DNA of 64,000 nucleotides from Bdellovibrionales bacterium (GTDB taxonomy: Bacteria; Bdellovibrionota; Bdellovibrionia; Bdellovibrionales; UBA1609): assembly GCA_965203095.1 (NCBI GenBank), contig OZ241877.1, positions 192,001-256,000 on the forward strand, in the 5' to 3' direction. Both the position numbers and the translations under genes were made by a program. The first letter of the stretch is position 1; each line of letters begins with the position of its first letter. This document shows, piece after piece, positions 5,010 through 58,892 of the stretch. The notes beneath the pieces were generated by a model. It ran no database searches. It saw nothing but the letters and a program-made list of their open reading frames with translations, and was not told the DNA's origin.

Positions 5010-5150
5010 TTTTTTTGTAAAAAATTATAAAATTTTTGTAAAAAAAGAGGATTGAGACATCATTGAGACATCAAAAAATGGGCTGAAAGGCCCAAAAAAC
5101 AGGGATTTTATGCGGTGTGTTAAAAAAACAAAAAAAAATTAAAAAAAAGC

Positions 5151-5178
5151 TTGACAAAAATCAGGACTATGGTATTGT
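5151..5178 (+). promoter_or_regulatory. sigma70-type promoter
   Basis: TTGACA, 16-bp spacer, TG-n-TATTGT extended -10; A-rich upstream tract. Confidence 0.65.
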
Positions 5179-5184
5179 GAGTAT

Positions 5185-5264
5185 TGCTCTAAGACGGTCC
5201 ACCAAGGTTTTATGAGGTGTCAAAGCTGAATGAGGCTGAGGGGGCTATCTTGGGCGTTTTTTTT
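5185..5264 (+). ncRNA. candidate small RNA or structured leader upstream of ihfA
   Basis: Follows a consensus promoter; 5' CTAAGACGGTCC can pair with 3' GGGCTATCTTGG; followed by a T8 run; family not recognised. Confidence 0.4.
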
Positions 5265-5313
5265 GCCTTTTTTCAATAAAAAGAGTCCCTCCCAATTAGT
5301 TAGACTGTCAAAT

Positions 5314-11771: not shown

Positions 11772-12000
11772 ATTATTTAATTTCTTTGTTAAAAAGCTCC
11801 CCAAGCTTTTTAGTTCTTACCGAGTTTGCCCGAAAGCCCCCTGGGCTTTCAGGCTCCCGTGAAAACGGAAATCCAGATATCCTGGATCTCAACACTAAAG
11901 TTTTGTTCATGCTATAATTTCAGGAAAAATATTTAATTAAAAAACTGTTCAATCTTTAAACAGTTTTTTTAAAAAAACAGGTTTTGTTTAAAGGTTCAGT

Positions 12001-12039
12001 AGGCTAAAACTTGACTTTTAGCCTGTTTTTAGTTATAAA
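12001..12039 (+). promoter_or_regulatory. sigma70 promoter with palindrome around the -35 box, repeated before each array copy
   Basis: AGGCTAAAA-CTTGAC-TTTTAGCCT; TTGACT-17bp-TATAAA; -35 boxes at 12011, 13095, 14214, 15336, 16454; AAGGAGG RBS. Confidence 0.75.
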
Positions 12040-12080
12040 TGTTTCATATTCATATTAAAGCATAAAAATAAGGAGGATTT

Positions 12081-13040
12081 ATGTTTTTAAAGCTTTTAAC
12101 TTTGATGATGATGATTTTTACTTTAAATGCTTATGCCAATCCATCTTGTTCGGTAGTAGAGCAAGCATATCATAACTATCCGGAAAATGATGCTAATTCT
12201 ATGAATTATGCTCATTGCCTTATCTTTAACGGGGATAAAGAAAAGGCTTTAGCTTTTATCCAACAGCTTGACAACCAAGGCTATATTCCTGGGGTTTTTT
12301 ATATGGCCAAATATATTCAGCACCAATGGAATTATGGAACAAGGGATTATGATCGTTTAGATGAAATTATAATGGCTTATCTCCGGGTAATATCTTTAAT
12401 TGAAGGGGCTTATGACTATCCCCAATTTAATGGGCCACGTTTTGATGGTGCTCTGCTCTGGTATGAGCAAACAGACCAGATGGAGCTGAACTCCCATTAT
12501 AATGTTCCTATGACTTACTTTCATAAGTTTAAAAAAGGAGCCGCAGGCATTTATAATTTATATTTAATGCAATCTTCTAATTACAGTGGGGAGAGGGATT
12601 TAAACACTTACCCCACTTACAATTTATATACTGAAGACAGTTTGGAAAAAACCATTGAGCATGCCAACCGTTGCCTTTCCCTACCGATGAAAGATTATTT
12701 TATAGAGGAGGTCTACCAGTTTTATCAATCAGCTTGTCAGGTATTAAAAGATTCTGCCCAAGCCCTTTTGCCATTAGAGAGGGAAAGGCTCTCCCTTTTA
12801 AACAAAAGGTCTTGCAGGGATACTTTGCCGAATTGTCAAGAGTATGATGAATTGGTTAAAGAGAAAATGTTTCCGATTATTGGAGAAACTCATGATGAAT
12901 TGGATATAATATTTGATGAGCTGAATCGCTTTTTAGAAAAGAAGGATGCTTGCTTAGAGGCAGAACTTGAAAGAAGACAAAGACTTTTTGATGAGCAGGG
13001 AATAATCCTAACTGATGAATTTACTTGTGATATATCATAG
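12081..13040 (+). CDS. secreted helical protein, array copy 1 (unique C-terminus)
   Basis: Signal peptide MFLKLLTLMMMIFTLNAYA; AAGGAGG RBS; paralog of the next three ORFs. Confidence 0.92.
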   Translation: MFLKLLTLMMMIFTLNAYANPSCSVVEQAYHNYPENDANSMNYAHCLIFNGDKEKALAFIQQLDNQGYIPGVFYMAKYIQHQWNYGTRDYDRLDEIIMAYLRVISLIEGAYDYPQFNGPRFDGALLWYEQTDQMELNSHYNVPMTYFHKFKKGAAGIYNLYLMQSSNYSGERDLNTYPTYNLYTEDSLEKTIEHANRCLSLPMKDYFIEEVYQFYQSACQVLKDSAQALLPLERERLSLLNKRSCRDTLPNCQEYDELVKEKMFPIIGETHDELDIIFDELNRFLEKKDACLEAELERRQRLFDEQGIILTDEFTCDIS

Positions 13041-13160
13041 AAATTCGTTTTTTTAAAAAAACAAGTTTTGTTTAAAGGTTCAGTAGGTTAAAACTTGACT
13101 TTTAGCCTATTTTTAGTTATAAATGTTTCATATTGAAGTATAAAAAATTAAGGAGGATTT

Positions 13161-14132
13161 ATGTTTTTTAAGCTCTTAACTTTGATGATGATGATTTTTA
13201 CTTTAAATGCTTATGCCAATCCATCCTGTCGGGAATGGGAGGAAGAATATCATTATTCTCCAGATTATCTCCCGGATGTTATGGGTTATGCCCGTTGCCT
13301 TATCTTTAACGGGGATAAAGAAAAGGCTTTGGCTTTTATTCAAGACCTGGACAATCGAGGCTATATCCCTGGGGTTTTTTATATGGCCAAATATATTCAT
13401 GACAATTGGACTTTTAAGACAATGAATTATGATAAGTTAGATGAAACTATAGTGGCTTATCTCCGGGTAATATCTTTAATTGAAGGGACTTTTGACTACC
13501 CCCGATTTAATGGCCAAAATTTTGATACTGTCCTGCTCTGGCATGAGCAAACAGACCAGATGGAGCTGAACTCCCATTATAATGTTCCTATGACTTACTT
13601 TCATAAGTTTAAAAAAGGAGCGGCAGGTATTTATAATTTATATTTAATGCAATCTCCTAATTACAGTGGGGAGAGGGATTTAAACACTTACCCCACTTAC
13701 AATTTATATACTGAGGACAGTTTGGAAAAAACTATTGAGCATGCCAACCGTTGCCTTTCCCTACCGATGAAAGATTATTTTATAGAGGAGGTCTATAGGT
13801 TTTATCAATCGGCTTGTCAGGTATTAAAAGATTCTGCCCAAGCCCTTTTGCCATTAGAGGGGGAGAGGCTCTCCCTTTTAAACAAAAGATCTTGCAGGGA
13901 TACTTTGCCGGATTGTCAAGAGTATGATGAATTGGTTAAAGAGAAAATGTTTCCGATTATTGGAGAAACTCATGATGAATTGGAAGTGATATTTGATGAG
14001 TTGAGTCGCTTTGTAGAGGAGAAGGAAGCCCGTGATGCAGAGATAAGCAGAAAATTTCAGGAAGAACTGGACGCTGTCACTTCAGATGAGGAACACCTTG
14101 AACTTTTACGAAAATATAAACTGATTGATTAA
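13161..14132 (+). CDS. secreted helical protein, array copy 2
   Basis: Same architecture as copy 1; divergent N-terminal variable segments. Confidence 0.92.
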   Translation: MFFKLLTLMMMIFTLNAYANPSCREWEEEYHYSPDYLPDVMGYARCLIFNGDKEKALAFIQDLDNRGYIPGVFYMAKYIHDNWTFKTMNYDKLDETIVAYLRVISLIEGTFDYPRFNGQNFDTVLLWHEQTDQMELNSHYNVPMTYFHKFKKGAAGIYNLYLMQSPNYSGERDLNTYPTYNLYTEDSLEKTIEHANRCLSLPMKDYFIEEVYRFYQSACQVLKDSAQALLPLEGERLSLLNKRSCRDTLPDCQEYDELVKEKMFPIIGETHDELEVIFDELSRFVEEKEARDAEISRKFQEELDAVTSDEEHLELLRKYKLID

Positions 14133-14277
14133 ATTATTTTGATATTGAGAATTCTGGCTTTAAACAGTTTTTTTAAAAAATAAGTTTTGTTTAAAGGTTC
14201 AGCAGGTTAAAACTTGACTTTTAGCCTGTTTTTAGTTATAAATGTCTCATATTAAAGCATAAAAATAAGGAGGATTT

Positions 14278-15249
14278 ATGTTTTTTAAGCTCTTAACTTT
14301 GATGATGATGATTTTTACTTTAAATGCTTATGCCAATCCATCTTGTTCGGTAGTAGAGCAAGCATATCATGCTCATCCGGAACATAATGCTACTTCTATG
14401 AATTATGCTCATTGCCTTATCTTTAACGGGGATAAAGAAAAGGCTTTGGCTTTTATCCAACAGCTTGACAGACAAGGTTATATTCCTGGGGTTTTTTATA
14501 TGGCCAAATACATTCAGCACCAATGGAATTATGGAACAAGGGATTATGATCGTTTAGATGAAATTATAATGGCTTATCTCCGGGCAATCTCTTTAATTGA
14601 AGGGACTTTTGACTACCCCCGATTTAATGGCCAAAATTTTGATGGTGCTCTGCTCTGGTATGAGCAAACAGACAGTATGGAGCTGAACTCCCATTATCAG
14701 GTTCCTATGACTTACTTTCATAAATTTACACAAGGAGCTATCGGCATTTATAATTTATATTTAATGCAATCTCCTAATTATAGTGGAGGGAGGGATTTAA
14801 ACACTTACCCCACTTACAATTTATATACTGAGGACAGTTTGGAAAAAACTATTGAGCATGCCAACCGTTGCCTTTCCCTACCAATGAAGATTTATTTTAT
14901 AGAGGAGGTCTATAGGTTTTATCAATCAGCCTGTCAGGTATTAAAAGATTCTGCCCAAGCCCTTTTGCCATTAGAGGGGGAAAGGCTGTCCCTTTTAAAC
15001 AAAAGATCTTGCAGGAGTGCTTTGCCGAATTGTCAAGAGTATAATGACTTGGCTGATAGGGAAATGATTCCAATTATTGATAAAGTTTTTGATGAGTTAG
15101 ATGTAATATTTGATGAGTTGAACCGCTTTTTAGAAGAGAAGGAAGCTCGTGATGCAGAGATAAGCAGAAAATTTCAGGAAGAACTGGACGCTGTCACTTC
15201 AGATGAGGAACACCTTGAACTTTTACGAAAATATGACCTGATTGATTAA
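14278..15249 (+). CDS. secreted helical protein, array copy 3
   Basis: Same architecture; divergent segment SALPNCQEYNDLADREMIPIIDKVF. Confidence 0.92.
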   Translation: MFFKLLTLMMMIFTLNAYANPSCSVVEQAYHAHPEHNATSMNYAHCLIFNGDKEKALAFIQQLDRQGYIPGVFYMAKYIQHQWNYGTRDYDRLDEIIMAYLRAISLIEGTFDYPRFNGQNFDGALLWYEQTDSMELNSHYQVPMTYFHKFTQGAIGIYNLYLMQSPNYSGGRDLNTYPTYNLYTEDSLEKTIEHANRCLSLPMKIYFIEEVYRFYQSACQVLKDSAQALLPLEGERLSLLNKRSCRSALPNCQEYNDLADREMIPIIDKVFDELDVIFDELNRFLEEKEARDAEISRKFQEELDAVTSDEEHLELLRKYDLID

Positions 15250-15399
15250 ATTATTTTGATATTGAGAAACTTGGCTTTCCTGCCTCAACTTTTTTTTAAA
15301 AACAAGTTTTGTTTAAAGGTTCAGTAGGCTAAAACTTGACTTTTAGCTTGTTTTTAGTTATAAATGTTTCATATTGAGGCATAAAAATAAGGAGGATTT

Positions 15400-16371
15400 A
15401 TGTTTTTAAAGCTCTTAACCTTGATGATGATGATTTTTACTTTAAATGCTTATGCCAATCCATCTTGTTCGGTAGTAGAGCAAGCATATCATAACTATCC
15501 GGAAAATGATGCTAATTCTATGAATTATGCTCATTGCCTTATCTTTAACGGGGATAAAGAAAAGGCTTTAGCTTTTATCCAACAGCTTGACAGACAAGGT
15601 TATATTCCTGGGGCTTTTTATATGGCCAAACACATTCAGCACAGATGGAATTATGGAACAAGGGATTATGATCGTTTAGATGAAATTATAATGGCTTATC
15701 TCCGGGCAATCTCTTTAATTGAAGGGGCTTATGACTACCCCCGATTTAATGGCCAAAATTTTGATACTGTCCTGCTCTGGCATGAGCAAACAGACCAGAT
15801 GGAGCTGAGTTCTCATTATCGGGTCCCTATGACTTACTTTCATAAGTTTAAAAAAGGAGCGGCAGGTATTTATAATTTATATTTAATGCAATCTTCTAAT
15901 TACAGTGGGGAGAGGGATTTAAACACTTACCCCACTTACAATTTATATACTGAGGACAGTTTGGAAAAAACTATTGAGCATGCCAACCGTTGCCTTTCCC
16001 TACCGATGAAAGATTATTTTATAGAGGAGGTCTATAGGTTTTATCAATCGGCTTGTCAGGTATTAAAAGATTCTGCCCAAGCCCTTTTGCCATTAGAGGG
16101 GGAGAGGCTCTCCCTTTTAAACAAAAGATCTTGCAGGGATACTTTGCCGGATTGTCAAGAGTATGATGAATTGGTTAAAGAGAAAATGTTTCCGATTATT
16201 GGAGAAACTCATGATGAATTGGAAGTGATATTTGATGAGTTGAGTCGCTTTGTAGAGGAGAAGGAAGCCCGTGATGCAGAGATAAGCAGAAAATTTCAGG
16301 AAGAACTGGACGCTGTCACTTCAGATGAGGAACACCTTGAACTTTTACGAAAATATAAACTGATTGATTAA
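15400..16371 (+). CDS. secreted helical protein, array copy 4
   Basis: Same architecture; N-terminus like copy 1, C-terminal half like copy 2. Confidence 0.92.
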   Translation: MFLKLLTLMMMIFTLNAYANPSCSVVEQAYHNYPENDANSMNYAHCLIFNGDKEKALAFIQQLDRQGYIPGAFYMAKHIQHRWNYGTRDYDRLDEIIMAYLRAISLIEGAYDYPRFNGQNFDTVLLWHEQTDQMELSSHYRVPMTYFHKFKKGAAGIYNLYLMQSSNYSGERDLNTYPTYNLYTEDSLEKTIEHANRCLSLPMKDYFIEEVYRFYQSACQVLKDSAQALLPLEGERLSLLNKRSCRDTLPDCQEYDELVKEKMFPIIGETHDELEVIFDELSRFVEEKEARDAEISRKFQEELDAVTSDEEHLELLRKYKLID

Positions 16372-16517
16372 ATTATTTTGATATTGAGAATTCTGGCTTT
16401 AAACAGTTTTTTTAAAAAAACAGGTTTTGTTTAAAGGTTCAGTAGGCTAAAACTTGACTTTTAGCCTGTTTTTAGTTATAAATGTTTCATATTAAAGCAT
16501 AAAAATAAGGAGGATTT

Positions 16518-16613
16518 ATGTTTTTTAAGCTCTTAACTTTGATGATGATGATTTTTACTTTAAATGCTTATGCCAACCCGGCTTGTCAGGAATGGAAGCA
16601 AACTCTCACATAG
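16518..16613 (+). pseudogene. truncated array copy 5 (signal peptide plus 12 aa)
   Basis: MFFKLLTLMMMIFTLNAYANPACQEWKQTLT* with intact promoter and RBS; homology ends after about codon 26. Confidence 0.88.
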
Positions 16614-16641
16614 TTTTAAAATGAATTTTTAATTCAAACAA

Positions 16642-17475
16642 ATGACAGGTAATAAAATGAGTATAAAAGATTCAACAAAGGCCGATATTTTTTGGATTGA
16701 TTCTCATGCTCATATAGATAAATTGAGCGGTCCTGTTGAAGAGACATTAAAAAAGGCTCAAGAGGCGAAGGTTTTTCGGATTTTGACTATTGGCACAGAG
16801 CCAGAGGATTGGGAAAAGGTAATATCCCTTTGCCGGCAAAATTTTCCGGAAGTTTACGGTGCCTTGGGGATGCACCCCCACACTGCCAAGGACTTTAATG
16901 AGGACTGCGAAAAGTTTTTACAAAAACATTTGCCCTCAAAGCGAATTGTCGCTATGGGGGAAATTGGTTTAGATTATTATTATGAAAATTCAAAAAGGGA
17001 AACTCAAAAAGAGGTTTTTGAAAAACAACTCTCACTGGCTTATGATTTGAGAATGCCGGTGGAAATTCATACCCGACAAGCGGAAGAGGACACCAGCTTT
17101 TTTTTACAGCAATTCCGTGGGAAGTTAAGAGGGCTTTTGCACTGTTTTTCCAGTTCATACAGTTTAGCAAAACAAGCCTTAGACTATGGTTTTGATATTT
17201 CCTTTAGTGGGATTTTGACTTTTAAAAATGCGGAAAACTTAAGAGAAATTTGTAAAAAAATCCCTTTAGATCGCCTCCATATAGAAACTGATTCTCCTTT
17301 TTTATCCCCTGTGCCCTATCGTGGGAAGGAAAATCATCCCTCCCGCACTGCTCTTGTGGCCCAGCAGGTGGCGGAACTGCATTCTATAGATTTGCCATTG
17401 CTATCCGAACAGTTGAGGCAAAACACTTGGAATCTTTTCCCTAAAATCCAACAAGAAGAGAAAGAATCTTTTTGA
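16642..17475 (+). CDS. tatD: TatD family hydrolase
   Basis: IDSHAH, GMHPH, GEIGLDYYY, IHTR, LHCFS and ETDSPFLSP motifs. Confidence 0.93.
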   Translation: MTGNKMSIKDSTKADIFWIDSHAHIDKLSGPVEETLKKAQEAKVFRILTIGTEPEDWEKVISLCRQNFPEVYGALGMHPHTAKDFNEDCEKFLQKHLPSKRIVAMGEIGLDYYYENSKRETQKEVFEKQLSLAYDLRMPVEIHTRQAEEDTSFFLQQFRGKLRGLLHCFSSSYSLAKQALDYGFDISFSGILTFKNAENLREICKKIPLDRLHIETDSPFLSPVPYRGKENHPSRTALVAQQVAELHSIDLPLLSEQLRQNTWNLFPKIQQEEKESF

Positions 17476-56315: not shown

Positions 56316-56738
56316 ATGGCTAAAAAACCCGAAAAACCTCATCTTAAAAATTTAGCTGTGGAGGAGTTTAGCACCCCCTGTGCTCATTTTTTAAATCCAG
56401 AACAATCGGTCCGGCAAGCAGAGCAAATAATGAAAGATAACAACATTCGCCATCTTCCTGTTTTAAACTCTCAAAAAAAAATTGTGGGCATTGTGAGCGA
56501 GAGGGATATTCATTATTTTTATCGGGGAAATTCTGATGAAAATACCCCAGTCGGAAAAATTATGAAAACCGAGCCCTATTATGTTCCAGCTCAAACTAAA
56601 ATTTATGAAGTGGCTTTAACTATGTCGGAAAACAAATATGGAAGTGCCATTATTTTGTATGATGATGAAAGCTTGGGCATTTTCACTTCGACAGATGCCT
56701 TAAATGCTTTAATTGAAGTGGTTCGTGGGGATTTTTAA
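56316..56738 (+). CDS. CBS domain protein
   Basis: IRHLPV....IVGIVSERDI; second CBS with GIFTSTDAL. Confidence 0.9.
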   Translation: MAKKPEKPHLKNLAVEEFSTPCAHFLNPEQSVRQAEQIMKDNNIRHLPVLNSQKKIVGIVSERDIHYFYRGNSDENTPVGKIMKTEPYYVPAQTKIYEVALTMSENKYGSAIILYDDESLGIFTSTDALNALIEVVRGDF

Positions 56739-56894
56739 TTTTGCTCCCGGCTTTGACATTTTAAGGCAATATGCGGGATTGGGAGCTGGCAAAAATAATA
56801 TAGTTGTCAGTGAAAAAGTCGACATTTATAGAGTGCATAAGCAAAACCCCAGCCTGTTTAAGAGGGAATGTTAAATAATCAATTCTGAAAAGGA

Positions 56895-57221
56895 ATGGCT
56901 CATTCAAAAACAAAAGGTTTAGAGAGGGAGAACCTTGTTGCCCAACATTTGAGAGAAAGAGGCTGGAGTATTATTTATAGAAATAAAAAAGTTCTGGGAG
57001 TGGAAATAGATATTTTAGCCCAAAAGGAAAAAGATTTAGCTTTAATTGAAGTGAAATCCATTGGGAAAAAAGAACATATTGGGAATATTCTTAAAACCCG
57101 GCAAAAAGAGCGATTAAAAAAAGCAGGGGAAAGCCTTTGTTCCGAGTTTCCTGAAGGTTTGAGACTTTTTTTAGCTACAGTGGATACTCAAGATGATATC
57201 CATTTTTTTGAGATTTTATAA
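56895..57221 (+). CDS. YraN family protein
   Basis: G..RE..VAQHL..RGW.I..RN....VEIDILA....LIEVK. Confidence 0.85.
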   Translation: MAHSKTKGLERENLVAQHLRERGWSIIYRNKKVLGVEIDILAQKEKDLALIEVKSIGKKEHIGNILKTRQKERLKKAGESLCSEFPEGLRLFLATVDTQDDIHFFEIL

Positions 57222-57544
57222 TTCAGCAAAAAAAATGCCCAAGAAGGCTCTCCGCAGTTTCATTCAGCTTGCACCTTACAAAACTTTAGCTAACCACCTT
57301 AGGGCAATATCCACAATACTATAGTCCTGATTTTTGTCAAGCTTTTTTTTAACTTTTTTTTACTTTTTTGACGCAGTGAGTAAAATCCCCTATTTTCAGG
57401 CTTTTTTTCGTATTAAATTTCGTATTAAAATGAGGCTTAACTATAGAAACTGAAGAATCCCTCGTAAATTATAGAGCTTTTTCAGGGGCAACTATAGGCT
57501 CTAATATCTTGACAGAGCTTTTAAAGAGAGTTAAAGGCAAGACG

Positions 57545-57958
57545 ATGGGCTGGTTTTTGATGGTTTTAATGGTAGTGGCTTTCCCCTATCTTTCTTTTGG
57601 AGCAGAAAAATGCTTAAACTCTTTTTCGGAAGATGTGGATAGATTTGAAAAAAACTCCGCAAGCCTTAGAGAAGGGCCAGTTCCCGATGTGTATTTGCCA
57701 ATTGCTGATTTTTTTAATTTTGCATCCCCTACAGCAAGCCCAAGGAATAAAATTTTGTATTTGTTGTCCTCTAAAATAGAAATTTTAGATTTTAATGAAC
57801 CACTTTTAGAATCTTTAAAAAAACATAATATGGTTTTTATTGCTGATTTGGTTTCTCTATCGGAGGAGGATTTGCTGTCGGAGATCCATCTGAGCTTTGA
57901 GGATGTGAAAACCATTAAACTTCGGCTGGCGAAAAGTGATTTGCGTTTGGATATGTGA
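57545..57958 (+). CDS. signal-peptide protein with C-terminal RNA polymerase alpha-CTD-like domain
   Basis: MGWFLMVLMVVAFPYLSFGA leader; last 65 aa align without gaps to RpoA CTD (LK...IADLV..SEEDLL....L.......IK..LA...L.L.M). Confidence 0.7.
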   Translation: MGWFLMVLMVVAFPYLSFGAEKCLNSFSEDVDRFEKNSASLREGPVPDVYLPIADFFNFASPTASPRNKILYLLSSKIEILDFNEPLLESLKKHNMVFIADLVSLSEEDLLSEIHLSFEDVKTIKLRLAKSDLRLDM

Positions 57959-58019
57959 AAAAGCGAAAGTTTTTAATCTTCACTTTTCTCAAAGAGGGCA
58001 AAATTAAAACCATTTTATT

Positions 58020-58892
58020 ATGATAAAAGATTCGGAAAACCTTTCTTTTTTTAAAAAACACTATAAAAAAATAGGGATCTCTCCCCCCGATTTTCATTTT
58101 GTCCTGGGATCTGGCTTTAGCTCTCATTTGGATAAAATCAAAGCAAAAAATTGGGAAGAGCGAGAGGGTTTTTCTTTTCAGGCAGTAAAAATCCCCTCTC
58201 CCACTGTGGGCTCTCATGCGGGGCTTTATCGTTTTTTTGTTCATAAAAAAACAGGCCGTGCAGTGAGTTTTCAGTGTGGGCGACTCCATCTTTACGAGGG
58301 ACACTCCCCACAAGTGGTGGCTGAGCCGGTGTTGCAGGTGCAACAGGCCGGCACACAAAAATTTATTTTGAGCAACATTTCTGGCAGTTTAAAAAAAGAG
58401 CGTCCTCCCGGAACAGTTTTGGCTTTAACCGATCATGTCAATATGACGGGTTTAAGCCCTTTAAGAGGCCCGGAGAAAACAGATTTGAGGGGGAAAAAGG
58501 TAGGCCCTCGATTCCCTGATATGTCAAGAGTTTATGATGTAGATATGAGAGAACGGATCAGCCAAGAGCTTTTGGCCTGTAATCTTCAAGTGGATCCTGG
58601 GGTTTATGTGTGTCTTTTAGGGCCAGAGCTTGAAACCTCGGCACAAATTGAATGGCTAAAATTCAGCTCAAATTCCCGTTTTGATGTGGCGGGAATGTCC
58701 ACCGTGATGGAGGTCATTGCTTTAAAGCAGGCAGGGGCCAGGGTGGCAGGCTTTTCTTTAATCTCCAATCTCGCGACAGGGGTAGAGCCTCAAGTTAAGG
58801 ATATTTCTTTTTCAGATCTGATTCGCAATATGGAGCCATTTTCGTTTAAAATTTTACAAGCTTTTTTTTCTTATAGCGAAAGTCAATTTTGA
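58020..58892 (+). CDS. punA: purine-nucleoside phosphorylase (trimeric PNP family)
   Basis: VLGSG, TVGSHAG, GRLHLYEG, PRFPDMS..YD, GP.LET, GMSTVME, ISNLA. Confidence 0.88.
   Translation: MIKDSENLSFFKKHYKKIGISPPDFHFVLGSGFSSHLDKIKAKNWEEREGFSFQAVKIPSPTVGSHAGLYRFFVHKKTGRAVSFQCGRLHLYEGHSPQVVAEPVLQVQQAGTQKFILSNISGSLKKERPPGTVLALTDHVNMTGLSPLRGPEKTDLRGKKVGPRFPDMSRVYDVDMRERISQELLACNLQVDPGVYVCLLGPELETSAQIEWLKFSSNSRFDVAGMSTVMEVIALKQAGARVAGFSLISNLATGVEPQVKDISFSDLIRNMEPFSFKILQAFFSYSESQF

Follow-up and report, generated by a model that had tools for sequence, protein, structure and literature searches.

The window analysed here, a 64,000-nt stretch of Bdellovibrionales DNA, carries at 57545..57958 on the forward strand a gene that belongs, as judged from sequence, to an undescribed family of likely exported proteins built on RNA polymerase's alpha-subunit C-terminal domain (alpha-CTD), a textbook cytoplasmic domain. 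The family comprises 36 ORFs with 94 alpha-CTD copies, from one to 11 per protein, collected by a scan of representative sequences together with genome searches. A literature search, which covered little subscription literature and no supplements (where such proteins could be listed), returned no exported, repeated and re-captured alpha-CTD family, and the word "secreted" is absent from the available part of a 2026 review of alpha-like subunits (PMC13374769). The window gene is tentatively regarded as encoding an exported effector aimed at the transcription of a partner cell, a reading to which we give somewhat less than an even chance.

The window gene and its alpha-CTD fold

The ORF is 137 aa long, has no internal stop, and is composed, by translation, of a leader, a cysteine tag, a linker, and one alpha-CTD. 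Its synonymous-codon score is 0.16, compared with -0.04 to 0.10 in the five other frames and 0.10-0.27 in four neighbouring genes; its codon use is gene-like, and 57545-57958 is a real gene. A Shine-Dalgarno-like AAAGG (57533..57537, +) lies 7 nt 5' of the ATG. From this ATG, the leader has no basic n-region, which would be supplied by a possible in-frame extension of 12 codons with a putative alternative TTG start at 57509 (57509..57544, +).

The signal-peptide-like leader described in the sequence-only reading is borne out at residues 1-20 (57545..57604, +): an uncharged 10-mer near the start has a mean hydropathy of 3.14, the hydrophobic stretch runs for ~14 residues including one Pro, small residues follow it, and cleavage is predicted, by eye, near Ala20. 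Next comes the sole Cys of the protein, in the tag C-x-x-x-F (C23-F27; 57611..57625, +). SPase II lipoproteins are marked by a lipobox consensus directly before the Cys; here the Cys is preceded by Ala-Glu-Lys, which does not fit a lipoprotein. The linker (residues 28-72; 57626..57760, +) is of low confidence in the full-length model, with pLDDT <50 at residues 42-71 and 73-81, while residues 91-137 reach 70-87.

Residues 73-137 (57761..57955, +) had been called an alpha-CTD look-alike with 19 identities, counted by hand, to E. coli RpoA 252-316, and both statements hold. With RpoA of the annotated genome NC_000913.3 as the reference, the ungapped alignment gives exactly 19/65 identities, and shifts of one to three residues give 2-8. 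Pfam RNA_pol_A_CTD (PF03118) matches marginally above its cut-off (24.7 vs. 23.8 bits, E 2e-5), and an AlphaFold model of the domain (pLDDT 94.1) overlays on the E. coli alpha-CTD 3k4g with a TM of 0.86 and an rmsd of 1.1 Å over 65 residues, the model leaning to this fold through the alpha-CTD rows held in its 18-row alignment. The RpoA profile TIGR02027 scores 24.8 bits against a cut-off of 227.8 and is covered at model positions 226-297 only, its last quarter. Fold and hydrophobic core are common to the window protein and the RpoA alpha-CTD (PF03118; 3k4g, 3n97, 1lb2), and several conservative substitutions are seen at the 261 and 287 determinants, as these are described in the accessible part of PMC1874639. 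Unlike RpoA, the window protein has no alpha-NTD, is encoded outside the ribosomal rpsK-rpoA-rplQ operon, carries an export-type leader and a Cys tag, and has its DNA determinant replaced.

A complete, separate rpoA lies between rpsK and rplQ in the same genome, and the window domain is identical to its product at 16/65 residues and to the gene at 92/195 nt. Decay of an rpoA fragment, an origin raised by the sequence-only reading, is ruled out by the open frame, the lack of recent likeness to the native rpoA, and the intact copy elsewhere. The native RpoA itself (L001:910-2454) is 514 aa long, 8-residue repeats making up its long acidic tail, and rpoA frames of 400-815 codons are also present in several small-genome relatives.

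The window gene is flanked by a UPF0102 gene and a phosphorylase gene, a neighbourhood that differs in each of nine genus relatives; no alpha-CTD gene was found within about 1.5 kb of the phosphorylase gene in 9/9 of these, several of the loci ending at contig ends. The family-B repeat end noted upstream is real (57445..57495, +): a longer dispersed element is represented here by its truncated end only, its 17 other copies in the genome mostly flank housekeeping genes (by eye), and the repeat end is probably incidental to the window gene. Its role as a common promoter of tagged genes was rejected, as it precedes such a gene in 1/17 other copies only. Further upstream, 57226..57405 (no strand assigned) is a non-coding, 79% identical inverted copy of window 5086-5266, the latter located upstream of an ihfA-like gene; only these two copies exist, and the promoter-like site in 57226..57405 points away from the ORF, against the UPF0102 gene. 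Rfam over 56700-58100 returned two weak matches, far below the gathering score. Elsewhere in the window, 11900-16700 consists of five tandem units of ~1.1 kb that are 67-97% alike.

An alpha-CTD family and its lone-cysteine tag

Among 1.84 billion representatives that were scanned, 10 matched: the window protein, seven leader-bearing proteins in which alpha-CTDs stand in tandem, a two-domain protein lacking a leader, and a spurious repeat protein. One match is labelled Bdellovibrionales bacterium, in keeping with the lineage that had been assigned to the window. The family excludes P0007 and P0014, which lack a leader, as well as P0010, which is the spurious repeat protein. Within the order, 11/221 genomes have more than one alpha-CTD match; two of them hold duplicate rpoA pieces, and the other nine belong to three genera of a single taxonomic family (g1, 1/4 genomes; g3, 4/4; g18, 4/10). 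Second matches in G029 and G160, which are extra rpoA copies or fragments, were dropped. An extra alpha-CTD was found at E 1e-4 in none of the 203 remaining genomes of the order, and in none of the 63 genomes of family f10, which we take to be the classical bdellovibrios; in the genus of the window gene, 5/10 genomes have one. The carrier genomes are 1.3-2.5 Mb in size. Among 200 further genomes of the phylum, six have a second Pfam match; of the five inspected, four are partial matches in DNA-ligase-like proteins (by eye) and one is a helicase fusion.

No close homologue of the window protein was found: only the protein itself was recovered among 21 candidates, 0/200 metagenome stretches held one, none was found among 7,999 long candidates (a weak test), and the ESM Atlas gave no match at 0.9 or above. 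The genome-wide paralogue count proposed in the sequence-only reading came out empty, a repeat-profile search of 16,496 frames of the window genome finding only rpoA and the window gene. A family member (P0008) compared with phage and plasmid collections gave 5 and 28 records, with only single rpoA-type matches among those listed. The multi-copy family and its common cysteine tag had been no part of that earlier account.

The tag was scored by a script as a hydrophobic region followed by C-x-x-x-F/L/V. A leader with an N-terminal tag was found in 25/36 family ORFs and a leader with a C-terminal tag in 3/36, with two more by eye. A second Cys is rare beside that of the tag: between the first domain and 16 residues before the end, the 9,788 residues of the family ORFs include 6 Cys where about 120 would be expected, a count with non-independent repeats and with some false ORFs in its background. 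Of the domains, 1/93 keeps the native C269. In the window genome at large, the tag is enriched at the mature N-terminus (13/319 leader-bearing proteins, p 3e-7) and at the C-terminus (9/319; p 1e-5 against internal windows and 0.02 against 9/990 leaderless proteins), most C-terminal cases being ankyrin proteins. The 19 tagged proteins that were scanned include nine with ankyrin repeats (one below the cut-off), three with pentapeptide repeats, one trypsin, one nuclease, one GpsA, one with a weak Ig-like match, and three without a match. The C-x-x-x-F tag (e.g., L082-L100) is a candidate second export signal.

One alpha-CTD, in G007, is 85% identical over 278 nt to the rpoA of its own genome (dN 0.07, dS 0.51) and keeps all six DNA residues; on these rates, it is a recent capture from the native rpoA under purifying selection, and its carrier (L019:2494-3978) is a tagged exported-type protein, ankyrin-like by eye. 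The other family domains are far from native RpoA, with a median identity of 34%. A quick tree of 68 columns, which cannot fix the number of origins, places the window domain with G001-type proteins (SH-aLRT 90), its branch being long (1.23). Five close domain pairs were compared: dN/dS is near 0.3 in three, a fourth is saturated, and in the fifth dN is above dS. Six family ORFs are cut by gaps or look broken, and the leaders of L027, L069, L020, and L022 are interrupted or out of frame, as pseudogenes or assembly errors, suggesting a fast turnover.

Fusions add further modules. Two exported-type members (P0009 and L070:1294-2124 of G200) contain a sigma-70 region 4, in which R584, E585, and R588 of the recognition helix, residues with a role in reading the -35 element, are missing; the leaderless P0014 keeps RERxR. 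The G250 helicase fusion (L125:571-4644) is a 1,357-aa protein with a leader, a Cys at position 48, an SF2 helicase, and an alpha-CTD, found in 1/20 genomes of its family, outside the carrier genera and within the same phylum. A RelE-like reading of the L052 tail, made by eye, had no Pfam support and was discarded.

Alpha-CTDs outside RpoA have precedents. Stand-alone alpha-CTDs of phages (BFVD A0A6J5L490; Rhodococcus phage Finch A0A2P1JY10) and of bacteria are free, divergent, and without an alpha-NTD, like the window protein, with which they share only 13-24% identity; the window gene, with its leader, is encoded on a chromosome. In the BREX/Pgl kinase PglW and in P0007 and P0014, the last with an added sigma region 4, the alpha-CTD is reused as a module of cytoplasmic proteins; P0007 and P0014 have neither leader nor tag, unlike the exported-type family.

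The DNA-binding face and the protein-contact patches

All six substitutions claimed for the DNA-contact residues R265, N268, N294, G296, K298, and S299 (to P, E, H, S, E, and D) are exactly as stated when aligned to the fetched E. coli RpoA, leaving 0/6 residues kept, and the basic patch has indeed turned acidic, with a net charge of -4 over eight DNA-face positions compared with +3 in E. coli. The window copy has the most acidic DNA face among the 94 family domains. The further idea that this face was specifically replaced found no support: it diverged no more than the other surface of the window domain (p about 0.6; BLOSUM mean -0.14 vs. -0.21/-0.33), and most of the family retains the face. 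Among the 94 domains, 55 have a net positive and 24 a negative DNA face, and in 64-67 of them, the face is better kept than the other surface; none of the six residues is kept in 17/99 non-RpoA domains. Loss of the DNA face is, from the aligned residues, not a family trait, and given its family-wide conservation and its loss in the window copy, many members probably still bind DNA and the window copy probably does not.

Since the DNA-gripping residues are gone from the window copy, it would act by protein contact. The 261 patch of the alpha-CTD is the contact site for sigma region 4 and the 287 patch that for CRP, according to the accessible part of PMC1874639. In the window copy, the two patches together are better kept than the other surface (p 0.016 vs. 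E. coli and 0.0014 vs. its own RpoA), for positions picked after the alignment was seen and of which 285-288 are also a structural helix cap. The individual residues are D258E, E261D, K271K, T285S, E286E, and E288D, but V287E and G315D, and the chain ends before R317. Over the family, the 261 patch has a mean identity of 18% to E. coli, and V287 is kept in 2%. The sequence-only reading had proposed a decoy for alpha-CTD partners, naming activators, NusA, and Spx; the better-kept sigma and activator patches fit a decoy, and NusA and Spx are not supported as targets. NusA, by the title of a 2011 report of Schweimer cited in PMC6614797, reportedly binds the alpha-CTD via its UP-element site, the very face lost here, and is therefore an unlikely partner, and Spx is a Firmicute factor.

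The same surfaces could be explained by a small helical repeat scaffold, of which the remodelled surface binds a non-transcription target such as the host surface, a host protein, or free nucleic acid. Core positions average 70% identity to E. coli and surface patches 18-39% over the 94 domains, the charge of the DNA face spans -4 to +5, the copy number varies from one to 11, and the ankyrin and pentapeptide proteins of the same exported set bear the same tag, all as a scaffold would have it. We consider it somewhat unlikely, as the DNA face is kept above the other surface in 64-67 of the 94 domains and the sigma region 4 and helicase fusions point to nucleic acid or transcription.

For the window copy by itself, it is quite unlikely that a functional family left it behind as a single-domain, drifting remnant without a current role. 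The complete loss of the DNA residues (as in the 17 non-RpoA domains above), the long branch without close relatives, the variable neighbourhood, and the broken family members would agree with drift, but the frame is intact with its leader, tag, and Shine-Dalgarno-like site, no second Cys has arisen, the codon use is gene-like, and all 15 core positions are hydrophobic despite the low identity to the native RpoA.

Proposed export and delivery to a partner cell

Four secretins are encoded in the window genome, and by eye, their neighbours point to a type II system, a type IVa pilus, and a pair of Tad systems. FlhA/SctV, VirB4, and VipB, the markers for type III, IV, and VI systems, were not found in this genome, which is 90% complete. 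To our knowledge, there is no route from secretins into a cytoplasm, and delivery is the weakest link in the reading of the window protein as an effector. LpxC and ketoacyl synthase were likewise not found in the 90% complete genome, which fits dependence on other cells. In Bdellovibrio bacteriovorus, a native Sec signal peptide is enough for a reporter to leave the cell, and the predator has type II secretion, according to the available part of PMC12622784. The Sec-secreted proteins described there are mainly hydrolases, unlike the alpha-CTD family, and the same part of that source mentions no delivery to the prey cytoplasm, cysteine tag, or transcription domain for B. bacteriovorus secretion.

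The nature of the tagged cargo suggests that it is bound for a cytoplasm, two of its proteins, GpsA and the G250 helicase, depending on NAD(P)H and ATP, respectively. The only GpsA of the window genome (L083; G000:C1:1524859-1526109, -) carries a leader and a Cys tag, which is odd, given that the enzyme uses NAD(P)H and the cell seemingly lacks lipid synthesis.

A shorter journey, in which the leader stays uncleaved as a membrane anchor or export ends in the periplasm and the domain acts in the cell's own envelope, is quite unlikely. It would account for the missing basic n-region of the ATG-start leader, for residues 2-39 forming one helix in the full-length model, and for the injection system that was not found; the hydrophobic stretch is short for an anchor, contains a Pro, and has small residues next to it, a trypsin and a nuclease are headed by the same kind of leader, and the tag is also found at the C-terminus.

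If the window protein and its relatives are effectors, they would first be exported by Sec and lose their leader, after which the cysteine tag may guide their passage via the type II or the Tad/type IV pilus machinery into the partner cytoplasm. There, basic-faced tandem copies would bind AT-rich promoter DNA, acidic copies like that of the window would use their 261 and 287 patches to compete for sigma region 4 or activators, and transcription of the partner would be damped. The size of the family, the common tag, the sigma-4 and helicase fusions, the G007 capture, the conservation of the DNA face, the kept 261 and 287 patches, and the free alpha-CTDs that phages also carry were counted in favour of an effector, while the missing injection machine, the poor 261 patch family-wide, V287E, the chain end before R317, the unexceptional divergence of the DNA face in the window copy, the lack of a close relative, the long branch, the patchy presence within the genus, the broken members, and dN above dS in one pair were counted against it.

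A bolder version, which we hold to be unlikely, would make the lone-cysteine tag the signal of an undescribed two-step route of Bdellovibrionota into the prey or host cytoplasm, with the alpha-CTD and sigma-4 proteins as delivered RNA polymerase mimics, captured repeatedly from the bacterium's own housekeeping genes and silencing the transcription of the partner. The common cysteine tag is a concrete candidate delivery signal, present in a bacterium related at genus level to a predator that is genetically tractable. If the proteins do reach the cytoplasm of a partner, they would reveal how a cell's gene expression is taken over by Bdellovibrio-like bacteria.
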